DNA of 55,437 nucleotides from Candidatus Amesbacteria bacterium. Lineage in GTDB: Bacteria; Patescibacteriota; Microgenomatia; CAZETR01; Amesbacteraceae. Both the position numbers and the translations under genes were made by a program. The number at the start of each line of letters is the position of its first letter. Position 1 is the first letter of the stretch. The stretch lies in contig DAHXMV010000005.1 in NCBI GenBank assembly GCA_027371535.1, positions 1-55,437 on the forward strand, given 5' to 3'. The notes below the pieces were generated by a model, which did no database searches, was not told the origin of the DNA, and saw only the letters and a program-made list of their open reading frames with translations. Shown here in pieces: positions 35,973-54,009 of this stretch.

Positions 35973-35975
35973 TTG

Positions 35976-36047
35976 TGGCTACGACAGGATTCGGACCTGT
36001 GACCATGGCCTTATGAAGACCCCGCTCTACCACTGAGCTACGTAGCC
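35976..36047 (-). tRNA. tRNA with CAU anticodon (elongator Met or Ile2), 72 nt
   Basis: Hand fold. GGCTACG/CGTAGCC, D arm GCTC-AGTGGTA-GAGC, anticodon loop TTCATAA, T arm ACAGG-TCCGAAT-CCTGT, discriminator A. Confidence 0.8.
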
Positions 36048-36123
36048 GTGGATCAATTTTAGCAAAAAAACCCATTCCCGGCGGGATTTGAATTTAGCTG
36101 CAGGCACATTTTACAATTAAATA

Positions 36124-36857
36124 GTGAGCAAGAAAAAGGTAACTTTCATTTTAGGGATAATATTAATCTTTGGTTTTATTCTGATTATCCGGAAATACGG
36201 GCAGTAAGTGAAAAAGCCGTTTTACGATGCCGATACGGGCATGATTATTGTGATACCGACCTTTATGCCGACACTGACATTGACACCCAGGTTGAAGAAT
36301 TGGACTACTTATTCCGGCAAGATGAATGGGTGAATTTCAGTTTTAATTACCCGGCAAGCTTAAATTTGGTTCCGGTGAAGTATCCTCATCCGGAGGCGGA
36401 AGGAATGGCTTTGTTTCACAACACTCCAACCAAGAGGGAATATCCCCGTACCTGCGATATGGAGCCAACGGGGTTAAAAGTGGATTCGATACAAGATTTT
36501 GGCCTGGATTTATATTTGGTTTCCGGAAATTTACCGAATATTTATTTAAATTACTGGGGAGGGAATATTTATGACCCAAAACAGGCAATGGCAATCAGCT
36601 GGCCGGATAACAAACCTACTGGGTATAAATTGATAGATGAATACCAGGAGATGCTGCAAGGTTGTGCCAAAGACATGTATTTTATCCGGATGGGTCAGGA
36701 CAAAACACTGATCATTGAAAGAAATATTCAATTAAACAGACTGGCAAAGTGGTTACCGGAATTTGCCCGGGTACTATCACAGACTGATGTGATTACCGAT
36801 GCCGAAGCGGAAAATACATTTAACCGGGTGGTAACAAGTTTCCAGGTGATGAAGTAG
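36124..36857 (+). pseudogene. Disrupted member of the ILSTFKF-type secreted protein family
   Basis: GTG start plus signal anchor (VSKKKVTFILGIILIFGFILII), in-frame TAA at 36205-36207, then a frame change near 36310-36330 (NWTTYS in one frame, DEWVNFSFNYP in another). Ends with the family-like FNRVVTSFQVMK. Confidence 0.5.
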
Positions 36858-36902
36858 TTTTTTTTGGGAAGCCTGATTTAATTTGCGTATTTCTACAGCG
36901 AT

Positions 36903-37595
36903 TCAGGGAGCTTCTTCACGGCAAAAGAAGAAGGTTTGACTGATGAAGTTTTTCCAACCGGCATAGCTGATAAAACCGTCAAACATTCTGAGACCTCTTT
37001 TCAGGCCGGTAAATAAGCCCCATTTTTGGAATTTAGACCGGTTATGGATGGAAAACGGCATCCAGTAAACAATCTTGTGGTTTGTCTGCATATAGGTGTT
37101 GATGGCAACTTCAATGTCGTAACCGGAGATGTTATTTTTATAGACATTTTTCAAATCGATTCTCCTTAGTATTCTCTGACCGCTGTATATAATGTCATGC
37201 CTGATCCAATGACTCAGAACCACAGTTTTATCCTGTACCCGACGCATAATAATCATACCGATTTTTGGGTTTTGGTTTATTTTTTGGACAGCGTTTTCGA
37301 TTTCTTCAGGCTTAATATTATCCAGGTCTCCATCCAAGAGAAATATATAATGGGCTTTGGCTGTTTTAAGACCGGTTCTAACGGCTTCAGCTTTGCCTCT
37401 ATTCTTAACTAACCTGATAATGGTAATTTGGGGAAATTGAGATTTGAGCTGATGATAGGCGGATTGGTCATGTGAACCATCATCCACCACAATTATTCTG
37501 GAGAAACTTTTGACCCCGAGCACGGATTTGACTACACCAATAGGACGCAGACCTTCATCGAAATATGGGATTATGCAATCACAACTGCCACTCAC
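36903..37595 (-). CDS. Glycosyltransferase family 2
   Basis: VVDDGSHDQS and LLDGDLD motifs. Confidence 0.7.
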   Translation of the reverse strand: MSGSCDCIIPYFDEGLRPIGVVKSVLGVKSFSRIIVVDDGSHDQSAYHQLKSQFPQITIIRLVKNRGKAEAVRTGLKTAKAHYIFLLDGDLDNIKPEEIENAVQKINQNPKIGMIIMRRVQDKTVVLSHWIRHDIIYSGQRILRRIDLKNVYKNNISGYDIEVAINTYMQTNHKIVYWMPFSIHNRSKFQKWGLFTGLKRGLRMFDGFISYAGWKNFISQTFFFCREEAP

Positions 37596-37637
37596 TGACG
37601 AAATTATAAACTACAAGATATGAAAGTTATTTATTCA

Positions 37638-37665
37638 GTTGCTTTAATGAAATCAGAATTTCAGA
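37638..37665 (+). repeat. att-like repeat copy z (degenerate)
   Basis: GTTGC-5 nt-TGAAATCAGAA. Shares GTTGC and the 11-mer with copy e. Overlaps the GIY-YIG#1 3' end. Confidence 0.5.
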
Positions 37666-37898
37666 TGGAGGGTACTTATTTTCTTTTGCCGACTCCAACT
37701 TTTTATCTGAAATTCCCGTTTCAGGGCAGAGGATTTATCCGCAAGCTCTTCGGTATAGATAGGTTTTATAGGTTTATGAGAACGGGTATATGCACCACCC
37801 TTGCCATTTATGTGATCGAGAAAACGCTGTTTGGGATTGTTTGAACTGCCGGTATAAAAACTGCCATCTGAACAGAGGAGTAGATAAACAGAGTACAT
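37653..37898 (-). CDS. GIY-YIG nuclease family protein (81 aa)
   Basis: YSVYLLLCSDGSFYTGSS...R...H motif pattern. Confidence 0.8.
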   Translation of the reverse strand: MYSVYLLLCSDGSFYTGSSNNPKQRFLDHINGKGGAYTRSHKPIKPIYTEELADKSSALKREFQIKSWSRQKKISTLHLKF

Positions 37899-37986
37899 GA
37901 GATTATTATGCGCTTCGACTACGCTCAGGGCTGCGGATTTTGCCCTTCGACAAGCCCAGGGCTGCGAAAATGCTTCGCATTTTCTT

Positions 37987-38019
37987 GTTGCGGGGACTCC
38001 AGGAAATCAGAACCTGGTT
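37987..38019 (+). repeat. att-like repeat copy a
   Basis: GTTGCGGGGACTCCAGGAAATCAGAACCTGGTT. 32 of 33 identical to copy e. Confidence 0.8.
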
Positions 38020-38026
38020 CTTGGAC

Positions 38027-38278
38027 TCAAGGACTATCGGGGCCGCCTCTTTTAATACAATCCTGAACCAAACTTTCTGAAGCTGTTTGTAATTGTATAT
38101 CTTTTAACCCACTACCACCGGCTCCTAACATTGTACCTAAATTTTGAACATACCTTTTGCATTTAGACTCAACGGAATTAGAGTTAACGAGATAAATTAC
38201 TCCTATAATAACGGCCAAAATTGAGACAATAATCAGAAAGTATTTGTTCTTAAATAAATCGTCCCTAAGCACGTCCAT
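38027..38278 (-). CDS. Small single-TM protein
   Basis: One clear TM helix (YFLIIVSILAVIIGVIYLV). No recognised family. Confidence 0.4.
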   Translation of the reverse strand: MDVLRDDLFKNKYFLIIVSILAVIIGVIYLVNSNSVESKCKRYVQNLGTMLGAGGSGLKDIQLQTASESLVQDCIKRGGPDSP

Positions 38279-38393
38279 TTTTATTTTTTTCCGATTTCCA
38301 AATAAACCTCATATAAATCATGACAATTTAAGTATAACATATACAAGTGCACGATAAAAAAAAGACGGCATTCAAGGCGTATTTTTGATTTGC

Positions 38394-38420
38394 TGCGGGG
38401 ACTTCAGGAACTCCGAACCT
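38394..38420 (+). repeat. att-like repeat copy b (degenerate)
   Basis: TGCGGGGACTTCAGGAACTCCGAACCT. Three mismatches to copy a over the aligned part. Confidence 0.65.
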
Positions 38421-38504
38421 ATTAGCCTATAAAAACCCTTCCGTATAAACTGAATTTGTGATTAATCTGAGATGGTTGCATATAGTGGTTATAGATAATT
38501 TCGC

Positions 38505-38756
38505 TTGGAAAAGAAAATTAAATTTAGGTTAATTGGACTAGTTTTAGCTATTGCAATTATCCTGAGAAGTTTAATTTATGGCTTATCGGATATTGATCCT
38601 TTTTGGCGAATTCCAATACTAATAACCGAAGGTGGATGGGGGATAAAGTTAAGCCAAGGGCTTAGGGACTTTATGGTCTTGGTTGGGATTCAGTTTGTTG
38701 ATGTACAGTTGGGCGCGAGTTGGTGTGTAGTAGAACCTAAAAAATCCGCCTATTAA
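38505..38756 (+). CDS. Small membrane protein (TTG start)
   Basis: Two hydrophobic segments, followed by an intrinsic terminator. Confidence 0.35.
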   Translation: MEKKIKFRLIGLVLAIAIILRSLIYGLSDIDPFWRIPILITEGGWGIKLSQGLRDFMVLVGIQFVDVQLGASWCVVEPKKSAY

Positions 38757-38773
38757 AGCGGATTTATTTTGTT
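38742..38773 (+). terminator. Rho-independent terminator
   Basis: AAATCCGC-8 nt-GCGGATTT stem followed by a T-rich run. The stop codon lies in the loop. Confidence 0.6.
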
Positions 38774-38784
38774 TAATAACCTGT

Positions 38785-38810
38785 GTTGCGGGGGCCAAAA
38801 GAAATAAGAA
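38785..38810 (+). repeat. att-like repeat copy c (degenerate)
   Basis: GTTGCGGGG core plus GAAATAAGAA (9 of 10 to GAAATCAGAA). Confidence 0.55.
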
Positions 38811-38909
38811 ATTATTTCCTGTCATTAACCACGCCTATTTTTATTACGAATTTGTAGATATCTGAAGCGGGTTTATATTTGGAGTAAAAGGCGATAGAAT
38901 AGGCATATT

Positions 38910-39674
38910 ATGAAAATTGAGACCTTGCAGTGGAATATTGGGGGAGGAAAAATTAGGGAGCAAAGCAGTGACCCTGGGGCAGAAAGCTCTTATGTCCTGG
39001 ATGGTATGGGATACATGGCGGACTTAATTAAGAAGCTTTCTCCAGCCATTATTACCCTGGTTGAGACTCATGCGAATAATAAGACGGTTCAAGCTGAAGA
39101 AATTGCAAATGCATTGGGTTACGGGTATTGGGTCAACGATGTTTATGACCAGTCACACATTGAAGCGGGCATGGGTCTTGGGCAGGCAATAGTTTCCCGT
39201 TTTCCGATATCATCACATGACTTTAGTTTGTTTTATAACCCCAAATTTGAAACGGTCAGGCCTAACGGCGAAAAGTGGGTTTCTCACAATAAGGGTTTAA
39301 CGACTGGAATTTTGGATATGGAAGGTAAGGAGTTGGCGGTAATGACATTACATTTAATTCCCTTTAGGAAGTTTGGAGTTCCGCTGGATGACCAAAGGGT
39401 TGAATCGGCAAGAAAAAGTATAGTGGAGAAGATAAAAACTGATCCTGGCCACTTACTATTGCAGGGTGACTTTAATGTGGACGACCAAAGCTTGAAGGGT
39501 TTTTTGCCTGAGGTGATGGGTAAATGCCAGGAGGTTTTATCAGATAAACCTACAACTCCAAAAGGCAGAAGATATGATCATGTGGTTTACAAAGGCATGA
39601 TGCACATTAAGTCGGAAGTTATCGAGACCCTTACTGATCATTTTCCGGTTTATTCAGAATTTGAGGTAAATTAA
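38910..39674 (+). CDS. Endonuclease/exonuclease/phosphatase (EEP) family protein
   Basis: LQWNIGGG, LVETH and DHFPVYSEF motifs. Confidence 0.7.
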   Translation: MKIETLQWNIGGGKIREQSSDPGAESSYVLDGMGYMADLIKKLSPAIITLVETHANNKTVQAEEIANALGYGYWVNDVYDQSHIEAGMGLGQAIVSRFPISSHDFSLFYNPKFETVRPNGEKWVSHNKGLTTGILDMEGKELAVMTLHLIPFRKFGVPLDDQRVESARKSIVEKIKTDPGHLLLQGDFNVDDQSLKGFLPEVMGKCQEVLSDKPTTPKGRRYDHVVYKGMMHIKSEVIETLTDHFPVYSEFEVN

Positions 39675-39783
39675 ATATGGACGTGACCGTACCCCCTAAA
39701 CTGAACACGGTTTTTGTGTAATCCATTCAGTTTGGGGGAGGTGAATTCGCATTAAAAATCCAAGGAATAGCAATGGCGGACTG

Positions 39784-39995
39784 ATGGGCGACGAAGAATT
39801 TAAGGATAGAAAGTTAGCTTTAGAGAGGGAGCTTAAAGTAATAGAAAAGCAGCTGACGGGAATGGACGGGGAGATACTAAAAACTAATAATGATGCTCCG
39901 ATAACAGCTAAACGGGTTGCACCTGAAGAAAATGGCTTAGATATCACAAAAACGGCCGCTTTTTCAGCGGCCATTCCTACTCTGTTCCGGGGACT
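39784..39995 (+). pseudogene. C-terminal remnant of a large serine recombinase
   Basis: DEEFKDRKLALERELKVIEKQLTGMD aligns to DEKFREEKLEIETEVKSLENQLANTD of the intact recombinase (47820-49637). VAPEENGLDITKTAAFSAAIPTLFRG aligns to PAPENYALESTKMEAYWASIPTLLRG. There is no catalytic domain. Confidence 0.6.
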
Positions 39996-40007
39996 CCAGG
40001 AAATCAG
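39984..40007 (+). repeat. att-like repeat copy d
   Basis: GTTCCGGGGACTCCAGGAAATCAG. The preceding CCATTCCTACTCT matches the flank of the tRNA copy (CCATTCCTACTTT at 49518-49528). Confidence 0.75.
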
Positions 40008-40015
40008 TGGGGATA

Positions 40016-40297
40016 TCAGGCAAGCTTCGCTTGCTCCATCCCCACGGACTTCAGATAATTAGTGAGTTGTTTACGGATAACTCTCCTTCCCATACTTGTT
40101 TTCAGATATTTTTCCCTAGCTTCGGCGTCTTGCTTTAACAAATAGGCTTCGTAGTAAATAAGCTTAAAAGGTCTTCGGGGAGCAGTAGAGAAATTTTTTC
40201 CGTTATTGTGTTCTTGGATTCGACGTTTTAGGTCTGAAGTTGTGCCCGTGTAGAAATTATTATCTTTTTCAGATTGGAGAATATAAAGGTAGTGCAC
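40016..40297 (-). CDS. GIY-YIG nuclease family protein (93 aa)
   Basis: HYLYILQSEKDNNFYTGTTSDLKRRIQEHN pattern. Confidence 0.8.
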   Translation of the reverse strand: MHYLYILQSEKDNNFYTGTTSDLKRRIQEHNNGKNFSTAPRRPFKLIYYEAYLLKQDAEAREKYLKTSMGRRVIRKQLTNYLKSVGMEQAKLA

Positions 40298-40376
40298 TGG
40301 AAAAATTGTAGTACGTTGGGGGTATTATGTCTCGCTTCGCGATACACCACTCCCATGAGGCTGGAGCAAAAAGAGA

Positions 40377-40410
40377 ACAAAAAAATCCCGCCTTTGGCGG
40401 GACTCTTTTT
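40377..40410 (-). terminator. Hairpin with U-runs on both strands (bidirectional terminator candidate)
   Basis: TCCCGCC-TTT-GGCGGGA flanked by an A-run and a T-run. Downstream of the 40474-41620 minus-strand operon. Confidence 0.55.
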
Positions 40411-40424
40411 GCTTAATAGCCTCA

Positions 40425-40457
40425 GTTGCGGGGACTCCATGAAATCAGAACCTGGTT
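40425..40457 (+). repeat. att-like repeat copy e
   Basis: GTTGCGGGGACTCCATGAAATCAGAACCTGGTT. Confidence 0.8.
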
Positions 40458-40473
40458 TTTCAATCAAGTGGCC

Positions 40474-40929
40474 TTAGCCCCAGTGAAATTTGCCTAAAGT
40501 AAGAAGTATATTAACTACCACGATAACTCCCAAATCGACTACTTGTATCCCCCAATGATGCGCTGCTGAGTATTTTCTAATTTGCCCCTTCCAAACTGGC
40601 CATAAAAAAGGCGTGGCCAAATCAGTATGCAAAAAGGCGTCTTGAATCACGTGCCAGAAATATCCTAACCCTAAGATTCCCAGTTTCGGAGAAAATGTAC
40701 CAAGAACAATTGTCACTGCAACCGCCACCCACCAGTTATGCAGAAACCAATATGTCCTAAGCATCCAAAGTGGTGACTTAACCAACTCATTTTTGAGTCC
40801 ATATTTCGAGACGGCAAGCAGGGGCACACTTACTATATCCGGAATCGAAGCTACAACTGCCCCCTCAATGGGTAAACCTACTGTTCTCCCAATAGTAGTT
40901 CCCCAAAGAAGATGGTTTGCGGTATTCAT
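40474..40929 (-). CDS. Polytopic membrane protein, possibly a YdjM/DUF457-like metal-dependent hydrolase
   Basis: Four to five hydrophobic segments with conserved-looking His (HNWW, HVIQDAFLH). Weak assignment. Confidence 0.35.
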   Translation of the reverse strand: MNTANHLLWGTTIGRTVGLPIEGAVVASIPDIVSVPLLAVSKYGLKNELVKSPLWMLRTYWFLHNWWVAVAVTIVLGTFSPKLGILGLGYFWHVIQDAFLHTDLATPFLWPVWKGQIRKYSAAHHWGIQVVDLGVIVVVNILLTLGKFHWG

Positions 40930-40964
40930 AAAATTGAGTATAAATCGTTCGCCTCACGGAATTA

Positions 40965-41279
40965 TTACCCACCATAACCCTTTTTAGCTCTGGGGTTTAT
41001 GTAAATAAATCTACCAACGCCTTTCAGGCCGGGTTCTGACACCTCGTGATGTACTATGAAGCCAAGCCCCATTGAAATTGCTACCACAGAAAGCCTCGAT
41101 GACTTTGACAAAGCAATTACGCCTATGAGTATCAAGAGTACCCCGTAGGTGCTGTGATGAATATGAAAGTGGCCTTTCTTCAAATCCGGTACAGGTAAAC
41201 GAAATAGTTTTTGAAAATAAAATAGCACTGGGAATGATTCCAAACCAACTAAAAAAGCTAATATTGCAATCACCATCAT
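40965..41279 (-). CDS. Small His-rich membrane protein
   Basis: Three hydrophobic segments; HFHIHHSTYG and IVHHE motifs. Confidence 0.4.
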   Translation of the reverse strand: MMVIAILAFLVGLESFPVLFYFQKLFRLPVPDLKKGHFHIHHSTYGVLLILIGVIALSKSSRLSVVAISMGLGFIVHHEVSEPGLKGVGRFIYINPRAKKGYGG

Positions 41280-41620
41280 TAGTTCAGAGTTTCCCCTTTA
41301 ACTATTTTTTTAACTACTGCTCCTACAAATAACCTAAATGCTAACCTTTTTTCCTTCTCATAAATCATCGGGGTTCCCAGAAGTTCCTTACAAGCTGGGC
41401 AAGTAAATTTAGGTACTTCAGAAAACGTCTTATGCTCCAACTCTTGATAACTTGACCCGACTATACGATCTAGGTACATCCGCTTTAGTATTCCAGGGCC
41501 ATCTTTTTGGTAATAACATATATGGTTTGCGCACTTAGAGCAAGTTATATCAAGGAATCTCGAGGCTCCCCTTGCTCTACTAAAACTGTCCTTTTTGAAA
41601 GTCATCTTAGCTTTTCCCAT
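41279..41620 (-). CDS. Zinc-ribbon protein (CxxC...CxxC)
   Basis: SRFLDITCSKCANH ... FTCPACKELLG. The first knuckle resembles ribosomal S27e-type ribbons, but about 40 aa are inserted between the knuckles. Confidence 0.45.
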   Translation of the reverse strand: MGKAKMTFKKDSFSRARGASRFLDITCSKCANHICYYQKDGPGILKRMYLDRIVGSSYQELEHKTFSEVPKFTCPACKELLGTPMIYEKEKRLAFRLFVGAVVKKIVKGETLN

Positions 41621-41664
41621 TATTTCAATTTTACCAATTCCTCCGAACAGTATACAATCGGCTG

Positions 41665-42168
41665 GTGGAAAAAGTCACAACTTTGGATGGTTCTGCAAAA
41701 TTCTCTCGACGGTCACAAAAGCTGGGCAAAACAGTCGGTTTGGTGGTTGGAAGTTTTGACATCATTCATTTGGGTCACATCAACCTCTTCCGTCTGGCAA
41801 AAAGACATTCAGATGTGGTTATTGTTGGCTTAGACAACGATCAAACAATCAAACTTGTTAAAGGACAAAATCGACCTATTAACGACTTCAAACGCCGCAG
41901 TCAAATTCTTGCTGACTTAATTACCATAGACAAGATATTTTTGATTGACAAAACTTCATACCACGGTAGCGAGGAAGCACTTGATTCATACAGATTGCTA
42001 ATTGAAAAAATCAGTCCTACCCATATTTTTACCCACAAGATTTGTGATAGGCACTGGCAAGACAAGAAAAAAATCGCTCTGGAAAAAGGAATAACCTTTG
42101 TTCTGGATAGCAGTCCGAAGATAACTAGTTCTGGATCAATTCTGGAAAAGATACTGGGCGAAAATTAG
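41665..42168 (+). CDS. Cytidylyltransferase-fold nucleotidyltransferase (HxGH class; RfaE-II/TagD-like)
   Basis: GSFDIIHLGHINLF (HxGH). Size 167 aa. Confidence 0.7.
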   Translation: MEKVTTLDGSAKFSRRSQKLGKTVGLVVGSFDIIHLGHINLFRLAKRHSDVVIVGLDNDQTIKLVKGQNRPINDFKRRSQILADLITIDKIFLIDKTSYHGSEEALDSYRLLIEKISPTHIFTHKICDRHWQDKKKIALEKGITFVLDSSPKITSSGSILEKILGEN

Positions 42169-42257
42169 TACATACCTAGATTAAGCTCCGGAGCGGAACA
42201 AAATATAACCGTAGAGCATCATCGATTTTGTGGGTAAAAATGCTAAAATGTCGTGAA

Positions 42258-42941
42258 ATGACAATTTGTATTGCGGCTCTTGCTGAAAATGGATCCAAAC
42301 TGGTTATTGCGGCGGATCAGATGATAACGGCTAACATACCAATTTCTTACGAGTTTGAAACTGACGACGTACAGAAGATTTATAACATCACTGATAAATG
42401 TTACGTGCTCACGGCGGGAAACGCCTTGTTTGCCTGTGAGATTGTAAAATCTGCAAAAATGAAAATTGACGCGATTCAGGGAAACCACACCGTCCAGTCG
42501 ATTGCGGATATTGTCAGGCAAGAGTTTGTTAAATTCCGTAATACCGTTATCACCAGGAACGTGCTGGAACCTAGAGGTATAACATTGGCAGATTATTACA
42601 AAGTTCAACAGCAACTCGTTCCGGGAGTAATACAGGAAATTGAAAACGCCTTGGTAAACTCAAACATCGGCGTTGAATTGATTGTTGCTGGTCAGAACGA
42701 TGGTGGCGATTGCCATATTTTTACAATAACCCACCCGGGGCAGTTGTTAAGCCATGATGCAATTGGACACGTAAGTGTGGGAAGCGGTGCTCCGCATGCG
42801 ACCTATTATCTGATAGGTTCCACCTACAAAAAATCTCTTAGTGTAGGCCAGGTGAGAAGAATGGTTTTGAATGCAAAGAAGAAAAGTGAAGTAGCTCCCG
42901 GAGTTGGAAAAGCTACCACCGACAAAGTAATAGGTGCATAA
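42258..42941 (+). CDS. Proteasome beta-subunit/HslV-like Ntn hydrolase
   Basis: MTICIAALAENGSKLVIAADQMIT (Thr right after Met, Asp about 18 residues later), QKIYNITDKCYVLTAG (Lys33 context), VSVGSGAPHA (GSG loop). The track ORF starts at 42228, which would add a 10-aa propeptide. Confidence 0.6.
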   Translation: MTICIAALAENGSKLVIAADQMITANIPISYEFETDDVQKIYNITDKCYVLTAGNALFACEIVKSAKMKIDAIQGNHTVQSIADIVRQEFVKFRNTVITRNVLEPRGITLADYYKVQQQLVPGVIQEIENALVNSNIGVELIVAGQNDGGDCHIFTITHPGQLLSHDAIGHVSVGSGAPHATYYLIGSTYKKSLSVGQVRRMVLNAKKKSEVAPGVGKATTDKVIGA

Positions 42942-42949
42942 TACTAAGC

Positions 42950-43141
42950 ATGATGCTCGCAGACTATAATAACCAAAATCAAACTTTCAATTTTGCCAAG
43001 TCAGATTTTGAGGCTTACAAGAGATGGGGTTTGTATGCTGGTGTGAACTTGCCCAAAAAAACCAGTACAGTTCCTGAAGCTAATAAGGATAGCGAGAAGA
43101 AAAATCAGAACGTTGTAGATAAACTGACGCTAGAAAAGTAA
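42950..43141 (+). CDS. 63-aa hypothetical protein
   Basis: Starts 8 nt after the proteasome-like gene stop. No recognised family. Confidence 0.35.
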   Translation: MMLADYNNQNQTFNFAKSDFEAYKRWGLYAGVNLPKKTSTVPEANKDSEKKNQNVVDKLTLEK

Positions 43142-43276
43142 GAAGCAATAGAAAACAACCTTGAACCTAATACAATAACCTGAACAACTGTGAAACCTGA
43201 CCGAGGTTGATCTTAGTGTCTTGCACCAAATACCTTGTCCAAGTTTGGACTTTATTATCTCTAGATGAGCAAGTCT

Positions 43277-43807
43277 TTATTGGACCACTTCGCACTGGCT
43301 GAGGTCAATGACACCTATGGTTTGTGCTCCGACAACGCCCCGGACGGTAATGGTCTGGCCATTTTTGAGTGGCATGAGCTGGCTCTTATCCTTTATCTGA
43401 CAGCTAATTTGAGTCATTGAGAACTGTTTGGATGCAACATCAGTAAAGGAAATTCCGGAATCCGTAATGTTGGATACTGTGGCGGAAAACTCAACCAGTT
43501 TGTCCTTCCATTTACTTTCGGCGGCAACTTGGTTGGCATCAAAGTCATCTGCTAGCTCCTTGGCTGTAATTTTTTGAGCCGAAGCTGGTGTAGGAGAGGC
43601 AGAAGCCTGTTGGTTAGCCTGTGTAGCGCTGCTAGAGCCACCTTTATTACCCCCGATAGCTGAACCTACCATAGCTAATAGGACCAGAATCAGAATCCCG
43701 GTAATAATCGGGTGGCGGGCAAACCAATTCCGTTGGTCTGCTTGGCAGTGCGGGCATTTCTTGGCTTTGGCGTCAATCTCGGTCTGACAACTTTTACATT
43801 TCTTCAT
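43277..43807 (-). CDS. Zinc-ribbon, TM and OB-fold (tRNA_anti-like) protein
   Basis: CKSCQ...CPHCQ, a TM helix, a Ser/Ala/Gln linker, then ELADDFDANQVAAESKWKDKLVEF, typical of OB-fold 'tRNA_anti-like' domains (from memory). Confidence 0.5.
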   Translation of the reverse strand: MKKCKSCQTEIDAKAKKCPHCQADQRNWFARHPIITGILILVLLAMVGSAIGGNKGGSSSATQANQQASASPTPASAQKITAKELADDFDANQVAAESKWKDKLVEFSATVSNITDSGISFTDVASKQFSMTQISCQIKDKSQLMPLKNGQTITVRGVVGAQTIGVIDLSQCEVVQ

Positions 43808-43933
43808 TCAATTTCACCTCCGATCTTCCCTGTAGGGTTATTTCCATAACTAGGCTAATTATAGACATTAATTCTGTAAAGTACACACTCTGGAGTTGCG
43901 GTAAATGGGGCGTAACTAGCCGAGAATCAGGTT

Positions 43934-44149
43934 ATGCTGTCAAAACAACAACTTCTGAAAAAACTGGGTGAAAGAATTCGGTATGCCAGAATGGACGCCG
44001 GATTAAAATCTCAAGAGGCGTTGTCCGATAAGACGGGACTGCACCGGAACTACATCGGTAAGCTGGAACGGGGTTTGAGTAATCCGCCGGTTTATACTCT
44101 GTACCGGATCTCTGCGGCTTTGGGAAGGAAAGATCTGTTGGATTTTTAA
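43934..44149 (+). CDS. XRE-family helix-turn-helix regulator
   Basis: LGERIRYARMDAGLKSQEALSDKTGLHRNYIGKLERG. Confidence 0.8.
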   Translation: MLSKQQLLKKLGERIRYARMDAGLKSQEALSDKTGLHRNYIGKLERGLSNPPVYTLYRISAALGRKDLLDF

Positions 44150-44602
44150 TCGTGGATTAAGGCTAATTATTGTTAAGTAGCAACGCCCCGGGCGAAGTGT
44201 GGTTACCATAATGGTAAGGGAATTGTGTTGTGAGGATAACAACGAAAAGATTTAGTTACGGGGATAGGGGGTACAATAGTCATATTTTTGATGACAAATT
44301 TATCTTGGTCAGCCTCAAATAGGGTTAAAAAGGGTATGGTAACTCTCAAAAAGAGACAGTGTTTTGCTAAAAAACAGAGCTTTTTGATGAAATCTGAAGC
44401 TGGATTAAGTCTAAATTTGGTATTTTAACCGCCGCATTTAGTACTGTTTTTGGATCATCGTGAGCTTTGATAGGCTACCCCCCAGGGTTAGGAATCCGGG
44501 GTGCCTCCGACGGGAAGAATACGGTAGGCACCTTTAAAATACGCCGGAAAAAATTCGAAAATTGATAGGTGGTCCTAAAGTGGTAGACTTTTTACGATAA
44601 GT

Positions 44603-45349
44603 ATGAATATAAAAACAACATCGGCATATTTGCCGTTCTACGACCAAAATAAACAGCTAACACAGGAAGAGAATAGCTTTGTTACTCTCTTGGCCGAGGA
44701 TAAGGAGTTCGAAAATACGGTCGTTCAGCTTAGAAAAGTTTATGGCATTCCAAAAGAAGGATACCCAGACATAAATATGCATGGCAATCCGGACAGTGAA
44801 ATCGATAGGTTATTCAAAGAATCCCGCCGCGTTTATGACCATGAACCTAAACCTGAACAACTCAAGTTAGCCGGGATAAAAGATGACCTCGGACTTCTAT
44901 ATCGCGATGCAGAATCAATCTGCCGTGAATATGGTTTAACCCCGAGCTGGAAAACTCCCTTGGCTACATTCATAACTTTCGGCGTGCTCCCCGTCCCCTC
45001 CAAACCTTATCCTATTGCCGTCTACCCCCGAAGGGGTACTCACAGGTGGTATGCAGAGACCTCGGATAGTATTTTAATTGCAATTGAGCAACCCATATCC
45101 AAGGCGCAATTTAAAAAGTGGATCGATGCCAACTGGGAGAGTCTTAAACCTGAAATTAATAGCCTACCTAAACATCCTCGTTCCCAAGTCAGGAATCTAA
45201 AAGTCTACCAACGTATCGCACAGCTGGAGAACCAAAAACTTTCATTGAAAGAAATTGCCGGAAAATTATATTCGGAAGGGTTAATTAATCTCTACGATTC
45301 TGGAGTGGGAACTTACGCCAAACGAGGAAAGGCAATTCTTAAAAAGTGA
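44603..45349 (+). CDS. Hypothetical protein with a possible C-terminal HTH
   Basis: No recognised family. LSLKEIAGKL near the C-terminus. Confidence 0.45.
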   Translation: MNIKTTSAYLPFYDQNKQLTQEENSFVTLLAEDKEFENTVVQLRKVYGIPKEGYPDINMHGNPDSEIDRLFKESRRVYDHEPKPEQLKLAGIKDDLGLLYRDAESICREYGLTPSWKTPLATFITFGVLPVPSKPYPIAVYPRRGTHRWYAETSDSILIAIEQPISKAQFKKWIDANWESLKPEINSLPKHPRSQVRNLKVYQRIAQLENQKLSLKEIAGKLYSEGLINLYDSGVGTYAKRGKAILKK

Positions 45350-45464
45350 CTGATACGATAAAATTCCATCAATAAGGGATAAAACACTTCTTTGAACATC
45401 CTCATGTGGAATACTTCTAGACTCTTCTGAGCTATCCTCGGTCTAATTAAAACTAAATATTAAT

Positions 45465-45725
45465 ATGAGCCGAAACAACAATCAGCTGTTCGAAACCCAA
45501 GATTTCAACCTGTCTTGTTTCCTGCTGGCAAGTGAAATTCATCTCCTCAGTTTAAAACCCACAAACGACCCCCGCAAAGTTATTTTTGTCTTTGAGAAAC
45601 ACCCATCCCTAGAGCAACTAGTACAGGGATTCTGGTCAAACTCACAAAGAATCGAGCCCCTCAAACTTCTAAATGCACAGCGAGTGCTTAAACAACGTTT
45701 ACATTCCTATCTCCTATTCAAATAA
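45465..45725 (+). CDS. DUF5659-like small protein
   Basis: FETQDFNLSCFLLASEIHLLSL...VIFVFEK pattern (from memory). Confidence 0.45.
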   Translation: MSRNNNQLFETQDFNLSCFLLASEIHLLSLKPTNDPRKVIFVFEKHPSLEQLVQGFWSNSQRIEPLKLLNAQRVLKQRLHSYLLFK

Positions 45726-45736
45726 ATGACAATACT

Positions 45737-47359
45737 ATGAATAAGTCATCTGACCAATATACCAATCACGAATTAGGGGATGTATATTTCGCCCAACACA
45801 CAATCTCGACCGAGTTTGCTGTTCAACAGGGAATAACTTGGGACGAAAAAGAAGTGCACATCCCTGTTAGGGATGAAGAAGGTAATGTAATTTTTTCGAA
45901 ACACCGAAACCTTCACTTCACTCCCCACGATACCAACTCCCCACCTAAATACCGCTACGATGCGGGTTCCAAAGCCGCCCTGTTTAATTTCCACGCAGTC
46001 AAGGCGAAGGCCTACATTGTCATCTCGGAGGGTGAGGTGGATTGCCTGAAATTAAGTCAGGAAGACATACCCTCCGTGTCTTCTACCGGCGGAGCTAACA
46101 CTTTCCTGCCTGAGTGGGCTGAACTACTGAAAGACAAGTCGGTGTTTATCTGCCTGGATAACGACAAAGCTGGCCGGGATGGCACAGCCAAAATCACCGC
46201 TTTGCTTCCCGACGCCAAAATAGTCCAATTACCAGAAAACAACAAGGATATTTGTGAATATTTCGCAGATAACCACTCAAAAGAGGATTTCATTGCTTTA
46301 CTTCAAGAGGCTCTGACAATCCCTGAATGGTTACAAAAAAATGAACCGCCGGATTTCAAATGGGTCAGTGCTGAAGAACTAGTCGCCAAAGAGTTTCCGG
46401 AGGAACAGTGGCTGATCGACAAAATCCTATATATGGAAGGCTTTTGTTTTATTTACGGCGCCGAAGGTGTGGGGAAAAGTTTTATCACCTTATCCATGGC
46501 TCAGGCAATAGCTACGGGAACGCCTTGGCTAGGACACTTTCGGGTTCCCCGACCCGGTAGGGTGTTGTTTATCGATAAGGAGAATCCTCTACCTATTCTG
46601 GCAAAGCGCCTGAATGGCATGAAAATTACCGGCGAAAACATTTTCTGGTTGGAACGACCTGAACTCCTAGCTCTCGTCAATATCAAGGGCGAGCTCACTG
46701 ACTTTTTCAAATCGTTATCTCAAAAAGTCCAGAACGAAAAGATCGACCTGATTATTGTCGACTCCTTTGTTGACTTAATGGTTGGTTCCGAAAATTCAGC
46801 AGAAGATACCCAAGGTTTTTTCGAAACTATGCGGACAAACTTCCCGCATAAAACTATTCTACTTATCCACCATGAGAGTAAACCGATACAGGGAGCTTTC
46901 CGAACTGACGCCCAACGCACCCGGGGTTCCACCAATATCAACGCTCAAGCAATTACCCAATTCCGGCTTGAGTCGGTAGCTAAGTCCAAGACAGATCTTA
47001 CTCTCAAGCAAACCAAAGCCCGGAATAGCGAGAAGTTGGATAAGTTCGTGATGAAAATGGTAGTGGAGCAGATTGATGAAAACAATTCTCAAATCACCGG
47101 TTTTGAATATTTAGGTGAAGTGGTAGGAGATGAATCTAAATTTGAGGAAACTAAGCAAATGATACTTGACTTATTTGCCGATAAAATAGTTGTCTCAAGA
47201 GTGGAAGTTGACCAACATTGCGAAGCTAACAATATATCCCCGAGAACTATCGCATCTGTTATTAAAGAAATGATAGATAAAAAAGAACTTTTGGAGTTTC
47301 CGAATGAACAAGATAGAAGAAAAAGAGATTATTCACTCCCAGACAATGAAGAGTCCTAA
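45737..47359 (+). CDS. Toprim-domain primase fused to a RepA/AAA_25-like ATPase
   Basis: EGEVDCLKL and LDNDKAGRDG (Toprim). Walker A GAEGVGKSF, Walker B LIIVDSF. Confidence 0.75.
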   Translation: MNKSSDQYTNHELGDVYFAQHTISTEFAVQQGITWDEKEVHIPVRDEEGNVIFSKHRNLHFTPHDTNSPPKYRYDAGSKAALFNFHAVKAKAYIVISEGEVDCLKLSQEDIPSVSSTGGANTFLPEWAELLKDKSVFICLDNDKAGRDGTAKITALLPDAKIVQLPENNKDICEYFADNHSKEDFIALLQEALTIPEWLQKNEPPDFKWVSAEELVAKEFPEEQWLIDKILYMEGFCFIYGAEGVGKSFITLSMAQAIATGTPWLGHFRVPRPGRVLFIDKENPLPILAKRLNGMKITGENIFWLERPELLALVNIKGELTDFFKSLSQKVQNEKIDLIIVDSFVDLMVGSENSAEDTQGFFETMRTNFPHKTILLIHHESKPIQGAFRTDAQRTRGSTNINAQAITQFRLESVAKSKTDLTLKQTKARNSEKLDKFVMKMVVEQIDENNSQITGFEYLGEVVGDESKFEETKQMILDLFADKIVVSRVEVDQHCEANNISPRTIASVIKEMIDKKELLEFPNEQDRRKRDYSLPDNEES

Positions 47360-47407
47360 CAATCCAACAATATGCAAGTCAACCCACCTCATGCAAAAGA
47401 ATACCTG

Positions 47408-47428
47408 CAAATATGCAAAGCATATTTG
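47408..47428. repeat. Perfect 9-bp inverted repeat CAAATATGC-AAA-GCATATTTG within an ATGCAA-rich tract
   Basis: Read directly. ATGCAA hexamers at 47372, 47391 and 47413. Confidence 0.7.
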
Positions 47429-47540
47429 AATGTATTCTGCATGCATCTATTTTTCAGTAAAACCATACCTACATATTTTAATCCTGGTTCGACATTGATT
47501 GAACTTGACGGAAAGGGGCGGCTGATAGCTGCTTACCGGC

Positions 47541-47699
47541 ATGATAAATAATGAGGCAGATATTGAAGAGTTTCGGAGGTTATATTTTCAAGTGTTTGGC
47601 TTGGAAATTGACTTCCAAACGGCGGCAGAATTGGCAAACCGGTTGATAAGTATTGTTAGGATAGTTTACTTCCCGGACTTGAAAGCTAAAAATGATTGA
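47541..47699 (+). CDS. 52-aa hypothetical ORF (below the ORF-track cutoff)
   Basis: MINNEADIEEFRRLYFQVFGLEIDFQTAAELANRLISIVRIVYFPDLKAKND. No family recognised. Confidence 0.25.
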   Translation: MINNEADIEEFRRLYFQVFGLEIDFQTAAELANRLISIVRIVYFPDLKAKND

Positions 47700-47730
47700 C
47701 ATTCGTAGCCAAAGTGCAAGAATTATAGGT

Positions 47731-47795
47731 GAGCTCAATTTTACCCTTCGGCTTTTTAGTGGCCGTCTCAGTCAAATCCGAAGGGGTTTGAGCTC
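47731..47795 (+). promoter_or_regulatory. Long imperfect hairpin upstream of the serine recombinase gene
   Basis: GAGCTCAATTTTACCCTTCGG ... CCGAAGGGGTTTGAGCTC. Ends 24 nt before ATG 47820. Confidence 0.5.
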
Positions 47796-47819
47796 AAACT
47801 GGGGCGGCCGCTTGAATTT

Positions 47820-49637
47820 ATGAATCAATTTCCAGACCAGTCTCAATTGAAATGTATTGGTTATGCTCGGAAATCGTCTGAGGACAACAAGGAGCGCCAA
47901 GCTGCTAGCCTACCGGAGCAACTTTACATACTTGAGGGGATGAAATCTCGCCTTAAACTTCGGATTGTGGGAATATTGGAAGAATCAAAATCAGCTCACC
48001 AAAAAGGTAGGGAGGTTTTTGAATCAATGTTGGCTAGAGTTGAAGCGGGTGGCGCGAATGCTATCGTAACCTGGCATCCAAATCGTCTGGCTCGAAATAT
48101 GACTGACGGCGGAAGAATTATTGATCTAATGGACTCAGGGAAGCTAATTGAGGTGATAACGCCTTCTAGGGCTTATCTCAACACTCCGGAGGATAAATTT
48201 ATGCTGACTCTGGAGTTTGGATTATCTAAAAAGGACTCTGACGATAAAGCAATCGTTGTAACCAGGGGTTTGGAGAAGAAGTGCCGGGATGGTTGGCGGC
48301 CGGGGGTAGCACCACAAGGCTACCTGAACGACAAAGCGACGGAAAGTGGTTTCCGGCAGGTACTGAAGGACCCGGAAAGGTTTGAGCAGGTTAAAAAGCT
48401 GCTACTCATGTTTTTAGAAGGCGAATCCGTAAATAATTTGCATAGGATAGCTAAAGACGAGTGGGGTTATCGGACAAACCAAAAGAAACGTTCCGGCGGT
48501 GTACCCTTATCTATTTCTATGATTTACAAAATGTTGACAAACCCATTTTACTGTAAAAAATTTGAGTATCCGGAGGGCAGTGGTATTTGGTATCCGGGAA
48601 AACATGAGGCAATGATCACGGAAGATCAATTCAAACAAATTCAGGTGCGGTTGGGGAAGAGAGGTAAATACACATTACAAAACCATGAGTACTCCTTTAC
48701 ATCACTTATAAAGTGTGGCGAATGTAATTCGGTTATCACTGCCGAACAAAAACACCAGGCAATCTGTACAAAATGCAGATACAAATTTTCTCTGACCAAG
48801 AAAAATAAGGACCACTGCACCAAATGCGGAACTAGGATAGAGGAGATGAAGAAACCGACTATTTTGGACTATACATATTACCGCTGCACCAGAAGTCAAC
48901 GCCCCGGGTGCATGCAGAAGGGGCTGAGGCTAGATAAATTGGAAGAGCAGGTAGATTACGAGCTGAGCCAAGTGGAAATCCACCCTCTGTTTGCTCAATG
49001 GGCGTTAAAGCAAATTGAAAAGATGAATCAGGATGAAATCAAGTTGAGAGAAGACAACATCAATAACATTAAAAGGGCTCATGATGCAGCAAGAGCCAAA
49101 CTGGACAACTTGTTACATCTTAAAATCTCTCCGGCTAATTCGGATGGGAGTTTACTGTCGGATGAGAAATTTAGGGAGGAGAAACTAGAGATAGAGACAG
49201 AGGTTAAGAGTTTGGAGAATCAGCTGGCTAATACTGACCAGAGAATGTTGCAGGTGGCTCATGACATTAACGAGACCTTTGAGTTTGCGACGCTGGCCCA
49301 GCAGCGGTTTGCCGCGGCGGATTTAAAGACCAAACGAAAAATGGCCATGGACCTCGGGACGCACCTAATTTTGAAGGACAAAAAAGTCCTGTTTGATAAT
49401 CCATTTCCGATTTTCAAACTTAAAGAGATCAAAAAGGAAGTTCCGTCAGTTGCAATTACACCCGCACCTGAAAATTATGCCTTAGAATCAACAAAAATGG
49501 AGGCTTATTGGGCCTCCATTCCTACTTTGTTGCGGGGCCGGGAATCGCACCCGGTCTGGAAGATTATGAGCCTTCCGTGCGGCTTTACACTACCCCGCAT
49601 ATCAAGGAACCTATTTATTATAACATCGGAATATTAG
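47820..49637 (+). CDS. Large serine recombinase
   Basis: IGYARKSSEDNKERQAASLPEQ catalytic region, recombinase domain, Cys-rich zinc ribbon (CGECNS...CTKCG...YYRC), coiled coil. The last ~36 codons are antisense to a tRNA, so the true stop/tail is uncertain. Confidence 0.85.
   Translation: MNQFPDQSQLKCIGYARKSSEDNKERQAASLPEQLYILEGMKSRLKLRIVGILEESKSAHQKGREVFESMLARVEAGGANAIVTWHPNRLARNMTDGGRIIDLMDSGKLIEVITPSRAYLNTPEDKFMLTLEFGLSKKDSDDKAIVVTRGLEKKCRDGWRPGVAPQGYLNDKATESGFRQVLKDPERFEQVKKLLLMFLEGESVNNLHRIAKDEWGYRTNQKKRSGGVPLSISMIYKMLTNPFYCKKFEYPEGSGIWYPGKHEAMITEDQFKQIQVRLGKRGKYTLQNHEYSFTSLIKCGECNSVITAEQKHQAICTKCRYKFSLTKKNKDHCTKCGTRIEEMKKPTILDYTYYRCTRSQRPGCMQKGLRLDKLEEQVDYELSQVEIHPLFAQWALKQIEKMNQDEIKLREDNINNIKRAHDAARAKLDNLLHLKISPANSDGSLLSDEKFREEKLEIETEVKSLENQLANTDQRMLQVAHDINETFEFATLAQQRFAAADLKTKRKMAMDLGTHLILKDKKVLFDNPFPIFKLKEIKKEVPSVAITPAPENYALESTKMEAYWASIPTLLRGRESHPVWKIMSLPCGFTLPRISRNLFIITSEY
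49530..49599 (-). tRNA. Atypical tRNA-like gene, CAU anticodon, initiator-like acceptor stem
   Basis: Hand fold. TGCGGGG/CCCCGCA, TA, D arm GTGT-AAAGCC-GCAC (no GG), anticodon arm GAAGG-CTCATAA-TCTTC, variable loop CAGA, T arm CCGGG-TGCGATT-CCCGG, discriminator A, then CAA rather than CCA. Confidence 0.5.
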
Positions 49638-49678
49638 TATTGGCTTTCGGAAGTGATATACTGAATATCGGCTGAAAT

Positions 49679-50023
49679 ATGTTTAAGACGCTGACAGATT
49701 TGGGAATGAAAAGGACAGGGAAGCAGGCTTTGGGATTCTATCTGGCTTATCTGCTGCTGTTTATGGTGGTAGGGGGGCTTCTGGGGGGCGTAGCAGGACT
49801 TTCCGGGGTGAATTCGGGGAGCGGGGGGTTTGATACGGGAATGAGGCTGGGGGTGACAGTTTCGGTAATTTTGAGCCTGGGGCTGTCAATTCTGATCCTC
49901 AGGGCTAAAAAGAAACAAAACAGTTTCGGATTGATCCTGATAGCGTTGCTCTCCGGGTTGTTGGCAATCTTAGGCGGCGGACTCTTAGGACTCATACCGG
50001 TAGCGTTTCTGACTACGAAATAG
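49679..50023 (+). CDS. Gly-rich polytopic membrane protein
   Basis: Three to four hydrophobic segments. No recognised family. Confidence 0.45.
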   Translation: MFKTLTDLGMKRTGKQALGFYLAYLLLFMVVGGLLGGVAGLSGVNSGSGGFDTGMRLGVTVSVILSLGLSILILRAKKKQNSFGLILIALLSGLLAILGGGLLGLIPVAFLTTK

Positions 50024-50262
50024 GAATTACACAGGTTATCCACAGAGTATTTTGGGGCTTTAAACAGGATTATATTAAGTGCTTAACCTATAGTATTAGG
50101 GAATGGGAAAAGATGAGACGAGGAATGACTTATAAGCAATACCGGGAACGCAGCTAATGGCAGCAGACCGGGCGTCAAATGAATCACCCCAGGTCATCAA
50201 GCAGAAGATATAAGGATGCTCCGGATTATGAATGATACCGTAGTCGCGGATAGGGTAGCACT

Positions 50263-51737: not shown

Positions 51738-51758
51738 AAGAACATTATATGGGATTTA

Positions 51759-51767
51759 TGTTATAAT
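51759..51767 (+). promoter_or_regulatory. Extended -10 promoter element TGTTATAAT
   Basis: TG-N-TATAAT read directly. Divergent from the ABC operon. Confidence 0.45.
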
Positions 51768-51791
51768 TTACGAACAATTTATGAACCTGAC

Positions 51792-52539: not shown

Positions 52540-52545
52540 AAATTT

Positions 52546-54003: not shown

Positions 54004-54009
54004 TTAAAG

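Follow-up and report, generated by a model that had tools for sequence, protein, structure and literature searches.

The DNA analysed here, referred to throughout as the window, is the 55,437-nt contig DAHXMV010000005.1 of a Candidatus Amesbacteria genome (GCA_027371535.1), from a tiny bacterium living in groundwater, in which an array of short same-orientation repeats leads up to an initiator-like tRNA(CAU) gene and ends with an intact 9.1-kb element that carries a gene for a large serine recombinase (LSR). An annotation made from the sequence alone (hereafter the original prediction) had listed seven repeat copies, lettered z and a to f, and had taken them for sequences resembling a tRNA 3' end. 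Our analysis retains the array, reads most of the repeat as recombinase coding sequence, and finds its likely origin in successive integrations at the tRNA gene. The features that carry this account, in which the repeat consists of a 9-nt core and an arm to its right, are as follows.

37638..37665, + strand: copy z, a decayed core and tail with a 5-nt deletion, left boundary of a GIY-YIG gene module (GIY-YIG-1, see below)
37987..38022, + strand: copy a, an attL-type scar in which LSR tail codons (LRGLQEIRTWF) follow the core GTTGCGGGG
38392..38427, + strand: copy b, a diverged scar (LRGLQELRTY and a stop) with synonymous and conservative changes
38785..38820, + strand: copy c, a diverged scar (LRGPKEIRNYF) preceded by a terminator and a TTTAATAACCTGT flank
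39745..40011, + strand: LSR gene remnant, about residues 429-577 of relatives, reading ...IPTLFRG across copy d
39984..40007, + strand: copy d, an attP-type junction of LSR 3' end, core and a tail arm cut after GAAATCAG
40425..40460, + strand: copy e, attL of the intact element, with native-type flank TTAATAGCCTCA, core and LSR tail (LRGLHEIRTWF...)
40425..49537, + strand: integrative element of 9.1 kb (Pfam; GC 0.425, GC skew 0.024)
45737..47359, + strand: Toprim + AAA_25 primase/helicase gene (Pfam), the element's replication module
47820..49637, + strand: LSR gene, encoding 605 aa when integrated, of which the final 33 codons are antisense tRNA sequence
49529..49537, + strand: core at attR, made up of the acceptor stem's last 7 nt, the discriminator A and one nt of the tRNA 3' end
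49529..49599, - strand: initiator-like tRNA(CAU), intact and intron-less (ARAGORN; Rfam 48.3 bits), attB right arm

The array itself was recovered by independent means. A repeat finder returned one family with five same-strand copies at 37987, 38392, 38785, 39984 and 40425, and the pattern of core, seven free positions and GAAATCAG, allowing up to 3 mismatches, matched five times where 0.17 matches were expected from shuffles. A profile hidden Markov model (HMM) built from 32 copies, all of them outside the window, gave E-values of 2.3e-11 for e, 8.6e-11 for a, 6.2e-5 for b, 2.7e-4 for d and 1.9e-3 for c, and revealed no further significant copy in the 55-kb window. These five copies are the solid part of the array as first proposed; the positions given for a, c, d and e were correct, b starts at 38392 rather than 38394, and the single difference stated between a and e over 33 nt is borne out. 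Copy z is not significant alone (HMM E 0.35) and draws its support from position, aligning at L089 and L030 (L numbers denote loci) with the copy that bounds the GIY-YIG-1 module on the left. Counting the tRNA itself as copy f holds for the 9-nt core GTTGCGGGG, the sole shared part, and fails for the rest (HMM E 29). Copy e is identical over 35 nt (100%) to the copy in Amesbacteria L001/L006, and terminator-like hairpins lie just left of copies a, c and e.

What the repeat consists of emerged from its reading frame. The LSR frame runs across the core as ...IPTLLRG, the core encoding L-R-G; in every copy the arm on the right stays in frame and encodes L-x-E-I-R-T-Y/W-F. Of 36 copies taken from the window and some 25 further loci, every arm translates as the LRGL(H/Q/D/E/K/R)EIRT(Y/W)F type and does so with synonymous codons (Leu as CTC, TTA, TTG, CTA or CTT; Gly as GGN; Arg as AGA or CGC; Ile varying as well), such that codon entropy is 0.96 at third positions against 0.47 at first and 0.43 at second positions. 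Even in the 7-nt stretch left free by the search pattern, 32/35 copies have T at one second codon position and 32/35 have A at the other. The C-termini of the 120 LSR homologs listed fit this reading, with most of those that reach ...LRG ending there or entering tRNA-antisense tails and about six of the 120 reading on, in an unsplit form, as (E/D)(I/V)RT(Y/W/F) plus more residues. Because the arm translates in the LSR frame with codon-periodic variation and the homolog C-termini agree, we take it to be the natural C-terminal coding end of the recombinase, which places attP inside the LSR gene. Copies b and c, being diverged at synonymous and conservative sites, derive from other LSR lineages.

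This reading replaces the proposed likeness to a tRNA 3' end, along with the claim that a CCAGG/CCTGG hairpin is kept among the copies: the hairpin is fully paired in only 1/36 of them, most copies end CCTAT, and an Rfam scan gave no family match at the repeats. Fitting the arm by hand as a T arm plus acceptor required a 9-nt loop and a 3-nt spacer on a stem that is not conserved and that Rfam does not recognize, and this candidate was rejected. A separate observation concerns L119 (6300-6362; P0052), where an LSR relative has an unsplit tail (..IPSLCRHLEEIRTYFLTSP..) and carries GTGCCGACA in place of GTTGCGGGG. Either a free element or a lineage aimed at a different target may be represented here. 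The contig was considered as a circular free form and set aside, as its ends do not overlap and it differs in the core sequence.

The recombinase encoded next to the tRNA matches Resolvase PF00239 (6.7e-16), Recombinase PF07508 (9.9e-9) and Zn_ribbon PF13408 (8.4e-6), and a phmmer search against PDB matched the SPbeta and A118 integrase structures. Its family comprises 614 proteins at E<=1e-20, and those matches with a named source come from Microgenomates or other Patescibacteria, except one partial Nitrospirota match. As in the window, the LSR open reading frame (ORF) runs through the core into antisense tRNA at L009, L013, L016, L055 and L106, and an opposite-end copy of core and arm lies 9.2 kb away at L009, 6.2 kb at L013 and 8.0 kb at L016, with two additional core-and-arm copies at L009. 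The free form of the enzyme, as reconstructed, would have 593 aa and the C-terminus ...LLRGLHEIRTWFFNQVALAPVKFA, and the predicted attP of the circular 9.1-kb element is the LSR 3' end, the core and ACTCCATGAAATCAG. Besides the LSR, the maintenance genes of the element encode a helix-turn-helix regulator, a DUF5659 protein and the Toprim+AAA_25 primase/helicase, and among its cargo are genes for transmembrane (TM) proteins, a cytidylyltransferase, and proteasome-like and OB-fold proteins, one of each. The LSR gene remnant at copy d is supported by tblastn (E 6e-15) and by a DNA profile (E 1.2e-33), and a 74-nt direct repeat, D2, pairs the stretch ending at copy d with the 3' end of the intact LSR gene at 76% identity.

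Comparison with relatives revealed an empty site. When the outer flanks of e and f are joined into a predicted attB, they reproduce the uninterrupted site of L073 at 130/147 identical positions, continuous across the junction; the empty site is predicted to read TTAATAGCCTCA, core and CCGGGAATCGC. The match to L073 identifies copies e and f with attL and attR, the two ends of the 9.1-kb element. Other relatives have sites that are differently filled or hold a single unit. Amesbacteria L006 is syntenic with the window and carries one unit of ~480 bp whose arm is 100% identical to copy e, while the housekeeping genes of the two are only ~70% identical; L003, a 2.1-kb groundwater contig, holds three copies.

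The repeat is also tied to one gene. Across 105 non-redundant loci, 29 core-and-arm copies lie downstream of the tRNA(CAU) 3' end in one orientation and 0 lie on the opposite side in that orientation, and scar copies stand beside the tRNA in 21/105 genome loci. A scan with the arm only, which was not anchored on the tRNA, led to the same place: all of its matches in the Candidate Phyla Radiation (CPR) but two copies carry the full core, and the tRNA lies 0.5-3.1 kb to the right in 7/12 new loci, the other loci being truncated and too short to tell. Non-CPR matches of that scan numbered about ten and were without the core, at a rough chance expectation of about 17, and the viral contigs searched held no repeat copy. 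With the copies tied to the side and orientation of the tRNA and the core kept in CPR, the repeat is not a dispersed element.

Two sets of matches stand apart from this pattern. L060 (CAYVAR010000029.1) is the only locus with core-and-arm copies 5' of the tRNA, three of them, all inverted and 376-5388 nt away; these are the only inverted copies among the 105 loci and suggest an inversion or a second target. In Acidobacteriaceae/Terriglobia (L123, L125, L131 and L134), GCGGGG-N7-GAAATCAGAACCTG(C/T)TC occurs in seemingly one conserved gene, and these four matches, which do not have the core's GTTG, are treated as unrelated.

The target tRNA had been called atypical, which its Rfam score of 48.3 bits does not bear out; its 3' half is conserved in >100 Patescibacteria genomes, with 102 loci found when one genome per species was scanned with this half. 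Its 3' end, CCCCGCAAC, we take to be the same as that of E. coli tRNA-fMet, and C1xA72 is present in the tRNA(CAU) of relatives such as L009. A side observation on this gene is that its anticodon loop is interrupted after U33 in 39/102 loci by ~190-260 nt free of ORFs (for example L001 1297-1506, L006 6583-6794, L084 6666-6892 and L075 4245-4435), and 13/17 of the interruptions tested pass the Rfam gathering score for group I introns, the position after U33 being that of the classical fMet.2Ug group I intron (10.1101/2020.01.27.920355). At L001 (about 1515-1535) and L002, 48 nt are missing relative to L006 6795-6860, which removes the T arm and the 3' acceptor strand, and this loss in two of three Amesbacteria assemblies reflects either a genuine loss-of-function allele or an error of assembly. 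A second intron or a split tRNA at L001, where a 121-aa ORF lies between arm and tRNA, was rejected upon comparison with L006, which has an intact intron-containing tRNA and one ordinary unit.

A further feature of the sites concerns their half-site motifs, which were compared by eye in four elements with an assumed centre. Counting away from the core, G(G/A)AAT..AG..CC is common to the P arms at positions 11-23, with GGAATGGAGGCC and GAAATCAGAACC equidistant from the core, an apparent dyad symmetry, and the tRNA arm carries GGGAATCGCACC at positions 7-18, ~4 bp closer in than the P-arm motif. In a published LSR model the motif bound by the zinc-ribbon domain lies further out in attP than in attB (PMC3783163), and the offset seen here appears to fit that picture. 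The likeness of the arm to the T arm (GAAATCAGAACC versus GGGAATCGCACC) is best read, from four elements, as a putative recombinase-binding motif shared by P- and B-type half-sites at an offset of ~4 bp, and this is likely why the original prediction saw a resemblance to the T arm.

Taken as a whole, the array probably arose by serial site-specific integration of LSR elements into the 3' end of the initiator-like tRNA(CAU) gene, a reading to which we give a probability of about 80%. The crossover would fall within the 9 bp of identity, GTTGCGGGG, read as CCCCGCAAC on the strand of the tRNA, and attP lies within the recombinase gene with ...ASIPTLLRG as its left arm and the tail L-x-E-I-R-T-Y/W-F as its right arm; we infer both the place of the crossover and the order of events. 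Integration would keep the tRNA intact and add a new hairpin downstream of it, fuse the LSR ORF to antisense tRNA such that the protein acquires a new, non-conserved tail, and leave the core and the tail codons behind as an attL at the opposite end of the element. The repeat copies would then be attL sites left behind in this way, or attP-type junctions where two elements meet. Repeated integration at one tRNA gene followed by decay, the first of two readings offered by the original prediction, stands in this form, with a severed LSR tail in place of the displaced tRNA 3' fragment that it had assumed.

Between the repeats lie the units of the array, whose contents had been named correctly beforehand (GIY-YIG, two small TM ORFs, an EEP nuclease, a recombinase remnant and another GIY-YIG, borne out by Pfam and by the tblastn match given above). 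The genes of the shorter units are as follows.

37653..37898, - strand: GIY-YIG gene 1, 81 aa (PF01541, E 1.7e-18), its stop codon inside the tail arm of copy z
38027..38278, - strand: small TM ORF, 83 aa, cargo of unit a-b
38505..38756, + strand: small TM ORF, 83 aa, cargo of unit b-c
38910..39674, + strand: EEP (endonuclease/exonuclease/phosphatase-family) gene, 254 aa (PF03372, E 3.4e-11), cargo of the decayed unit c-d
40016..40297, - strand: GIY-YIG gene 2, 93 aa (Pfam, E 1.1e-17), flanked by two copies of a covarying hairpin

Unit e-f is the complete element and c-d is decayed; z-a, a-b, b-c and d-e are short, LSR-less and single-gene. Across loci, the units between consecutive cores measure 0.3-2 kb and usually hold one intact gene, with Fic in four genomes, GNAT, NYN, 2-hydroxyacid dehydrogenase, leucine-rich repeat (LRR) and GIY-YIG genes elsewhere, and EEP in the window. 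Some units end in the last 38-60 nt of an LSR gene (L022, L089, L043, L114 and L085), with these remnants abutting cores, and at L022 the last ~51 nt of the LSR gene and the right arm form a complete attP around one gene. The TM ORF of unit a-b has a homolog, 38% identical, between two GIY-YIG genes at L056.

The GIY-YIG genes recur as modules with precise borders. The GIY-YIG-2 module, which is unit d-e of the window, is found also at L073 (81% identical) and L132, with the arm cut at the same base in all three; copy d is its left boundary here. The GIY-YIG-1 module, unit z-a, occurs at L089, L030 and L016 as well, and interrupts the arm 2-3 nt beyond the GIY-YIG-2 point. Type-specific flanks, TTTAATAGCCTCA or ...CGCTTCGCTCCTT, accompany the genes, and the same flanks stand left of the internal copies c, e and a. 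We also observed that small GIY-YIG genes of two types (81-93 aa) are multi-copy near these loci and that one lies immediately downstream of tRNA(CAU) in at least 30 of about 105 loci (e.g. L073, L056, L030 and L053). An element of ~45 nt (GGGGnTATTATG..stem-TTCG-stem..CCCC) flanks the GIY-YIG genes, in the window at 40306-40365 and 40008-40045; both of its stems covary in an alignment of 14 loci, and it is duplicated in tandem at L058, L082 and L110. A search for one explanation of the module boundaries was given up, as LSR capture, homing and deletion each fail to fit both ends.

Several observations weigh against simple serial integration. Canonical LSRs recombine attP with attB only, and the next integration beside an occupied tRNA would have to use attR. 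The internal copies c and e, probably a, and two at L009 carry native tRNA-adjoining left flanks instead of LSR 3' ends, and a scheme in which elements integrate at the tRNA and push older ones outward does not yield native-type flanks at internal positions. A trace of an LSR gene left of copy b, suggestive by eye (RIFDLLRG), was unsupported when scored (E 1.1). The short units keep intact single genes mostly without recombinase debris, which is odd for random decay, and the points at which the GIY-YIG modules interrupt the arm stay fixed although the arm variants differ, a pattern suggestive of a second process. Neither a circular junction nor strain-level polymorphism was found for the window genome, for which only identical contigs matched and no strain variants were recovered. 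For these points, and for the origin of the short units, which we treat as conjectural, three routes that do not exclude one another remain: decay with selection, mobilisation of cassettes in cis or trans by the LSR, and GIY-YIG homing.

The second of these routes, taken as an account of the whole array, would make it an integron-like capture system in which recombinase-less, att-armed cassettes are moved by the LSR in trans, or in cis by way of an upstream attL, and the tRNA-proximal site is regenerated for more captures. It would explain why units of 0.3-2 kb bounded by core and arm are present in at least 21 loci, mostly with no LSR adjoining the tRNA, and hold intact and diverse accessory genes (Fic, GNAT, NYN, EEP, GIY-YIG and others); the L022 mini-unit, with its complete attP around one gene, is what such a system might produce, the GIY-YIG-2 module is bounded exactly by cores in two contexts at 81% identity and GIY-YIG-1 is found in four contexts, and a regenerated attB-like site would account for the native-type left flanks at internal cores. 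We nonetheless regard this account as doubtful: no circular cassette junctions were seen, most units would upon circularising carry an attL-like rather than an attP-like site, with which LSRs normally do not integrate, gene orientation is mixed with no common promoter, L056 holds the order GIY-YIG, small TM, GIY-YIG without internal cores, and the ~45 nt of LSR end that some units keep could instead serve as the terminator of the tRNA. The original prediction had raised an integron-like array as its second reading, with tRNA-like hairpins as the recombination sites; that hairpin is not conserved, no integron integrase is present and gene orientations are mixed, and what stands of it is the description of single-gene units that share one site, a regularity that is real. 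Somewhat less likely in our view is that GIY-YIG selfish genes built part of the array by homing into the invariant GAAATCAGAACC of the recombinase tail or att arm, or into the region downstream of the tRNA, duplicating or reshuffling core-bearing flanks and possibly displacing LSR elements. The frequent position of these genes directly downstream of the tRNA (at least 30 of about 105 loci) speaks for this, as do the interruption by GIY-YIG-2 at GAAATCAG^ in three arm variants (window, L073 and L132) with that by GIY-YIG-1 2-3 nt further on, the covarying and sometimes duplicated hairpin element that brackets both genes, and their multiple copies around the loci, whereas a bare domain of 81-93 aa is without the DNA-binding extension of known homing enzymes, flanking direct repeats are not normally a homing product, and neither the units with other genes nor the LSR-coding arm would be explained.

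The two remaining alternatives fare far worse. A classical tRNA island array, in which tyrosine integrases leave displaced tRNA 3' fragments as repeats, would account for copies in the orientation of the tRNA and downstream of its 3' end, and a tyrosine recombinase gene is present at 33240-34115; we consider it very improbable, given that identity to the tRNA extends over 9 nt only and the arm is LSR coding sequence, and that the tyrosine recombinase is Xer-like, syntenic in relatives and outside the island, with no tyrosine integrase in any unit. For the same gene a Xer/dif mechanism was rejected, as the gene is chromosomal, syntenic and outside the island; the core is, as far as we can judge by eye, presumably unlike dif. 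We give next to no credence to a generic repetitive extragenic palindrome (REP), miniature inverted-repeat transposable element (MITE) or terminator-associated motif unrelated to recombination: terminator-like hairpins do precede copies a, c and e, yet across >100 genomes the copies occur strictly on one side of a single tRNA gene and in one orientation, variation in the arm is codon-periodic, and there is neither an Rfam match nor any other significant copy in the window. A broader proposal combines elements of the first two alternatives, with an LSR gene-capture platform at the Microgenomates initiator tRNA, the swap of the LSR tail acting as a switch of activity or directionality, and GIY-YIG genes parasitising the att arm; we think it unlikely, and the effect of the tail swap on the enzyme is conjectural. 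If true, it would mean a platform that captures, stacks and reshuffles att-armed single-gene units in cis or in trans, integron-like with unrelated chemistry.

Serial integration, which we prefer, has well-described parallels. Tandem accretion that leaves decayed, att-flanked remnants is known from the cis-mobilizable elements (CIMEs) formed by streptococcal integrative and conjugative or mobilizable elements (PMC5704250) and from tycheposon arrays in Prochlorococcus islands (10.1101/2020.12.28.424599). Like these, the locus shows what appear to be successive insertions at one tRNA 3' end with an intact element beside degraded ones, att repeats in one orientation that mark old boundaries, and accessory cargo that varies among relatives. 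The short units may be compared with CIME remnants of tandem accretions, as z-a, a-b, b-c and d-e have no recombination genes, are att-flanked and lie in tandem with the autonomous e-f. In contrast to typical accretions, the enzyme here is an LSR rather than a tyrosine integrase (a minority of tycheposons have LSRs), the displaced repeat consists of 9 nt of tRNA and recombinase codons rather than a tRNA fragment of 20-45 nt, and many remnants are single intact genes of 0.3-2 kb. The signature of Islander-type islands is not reproduced: the tRNA is intact, but the repeat shares only 9 nt with it where the typical fragment has >=17 nt, reaching from the T or anticodon arm to the 3' end; the island contains no tyrosine integrase, and the LSR is its only recombinase. 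Accretion at a tRNA gene is of a known kind, and what is unusual is the serine integrase, the attP in its own gene and the cassette-like units; a 2015 survey did not know serine integrases to target tRNA genes (PMC4383910).

Known cases of an integrase gene spanning attP are Myxococcus phage Mx8, where integration turns intP into intX, and the SSV-type archaeal integrases (PMC6070905; PMC4383910; PMC7253208). The present arrangement resembles them in having the attP core in the integrase ORF, a tRNA target and a new 3' end upon integration: read-through is seen at six loci, with the free-form tail conserved and the integrated-form tails being variable tRNA antisense. Those enzymes are tyrosine recombinases and this one is an LSR, so that the likeness is one of arrangement and not of family, and unlike in SSV, where the gene is split in two, only the last ~10-20 LSR codons are exchanged and the catalytic and DNA-binding domains stay intact. 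The order of Resolvase, Recombinase, zinc ribbon and coiled coil is that of the phage-type LSRs SPbeta SprA, Listeria A118/LI Int, phiC31 and Bxb1. The att sites are short as in those systems and, read by eye in four elements with an assumed centre, may also resemble theirs in imperfect dyad symmetry and in a motif further out in the P half-site. The system differs from them in its tRNA gene target, attP within a gene and a Microgenomates (CPR) host, and its elements, small at 6-9 kb, resemble plasmids: they encode a primase/helicase and carry no virion genes. With integrons the locus has in common an ordered series of mostly single-gene units with the same site beside a fixed chromosomal site, and variable cargo; it departs from them in having no IntI, no attC hairpin, mixed orientation and no common promoter, and a site in which one half comes from the tRNA end and the other from recombinase codons. 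No IntI integrase turned up when the main island ORFs (those >70 aa and two short ORFs) were scanned with Pfam, and an attC-type structure was not found in the copies, where variation is codon-periodic rather than compensatory and the stem pairs in 1/36.

Few mobile elements have been described for the Candidate Phyla Radiation, and this locus defines a large family with a conserved site in an essential gene. It would be a serine-recombinase counterpart of the Mx8/SSV arrangement in which the enzyme would be the same before and after integration except for a short tail. Natural variation delimits the short att sites well, giving attP/attB predictions for a new LSR clade that may be useful for integrase tools, and the short units, if mobile, would represent a second, independent invention of cassette arrays. 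In practical terms, the repeat serves as a marker for delimiting islands and explains the erratic C-termini of annotated recombinase ORFs.

Composition sets the array apart from its surroundings. The region 37638-49528 is a compositional island, AT-rich as had been noted by eye and with its strand skew lost (GC 0.42, GC skew 0.05), between flanks with GC and skew of 0.457/0.249 on the left and 0.466/0.237 on the right. Outside the island (1-35974 and 49600-55437), GC skew on the + strand is uniform at about +0.24 over >40 kb, and because it is so strong and uniform, foreign DNA is easily spotted through its loss. Left of the array lie the following features.

32796-32867, + strand: Ile-UAU tRNA, one of three tRNA genes in the window (ARAGORN)
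33240-34115, outside the island: tyrosine recombinase gene, Xer-like, syntenic beside DivIC in relatives
35975..36047, - strand: elongator tRNA-Met (ARAGORN; Rfam 64.2 bits)
36048..37637, no strand assigned: segment with a 185-aa ORF and a GT2 glycosyltransferase (Pfam; GC 0.402, GC skew 0.08)

The segment at 36048-37637 is, judged by its island-like composition, probably older inserted DNA; the HMM scan detected no core copy in it and no att copy bounds its genes. The elongator tRNA-Met is a conserved left landmark, syntenic at L006, L013 and L016, and lies 0.1-0.6 kb from the first core copy in relatives. The placement of tRNA-Ile (UAU) near the two CAU tRNAs is likewise conserved, at L001, L009, L016, L130 and L136. 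At L016 (15604-18831), an FtsH homolog of 1075 aa has intein-splicing matches and a faint LAGLIDADG match, and this insertion is another selfish insertion in a conserved gene of this neighbourhood.

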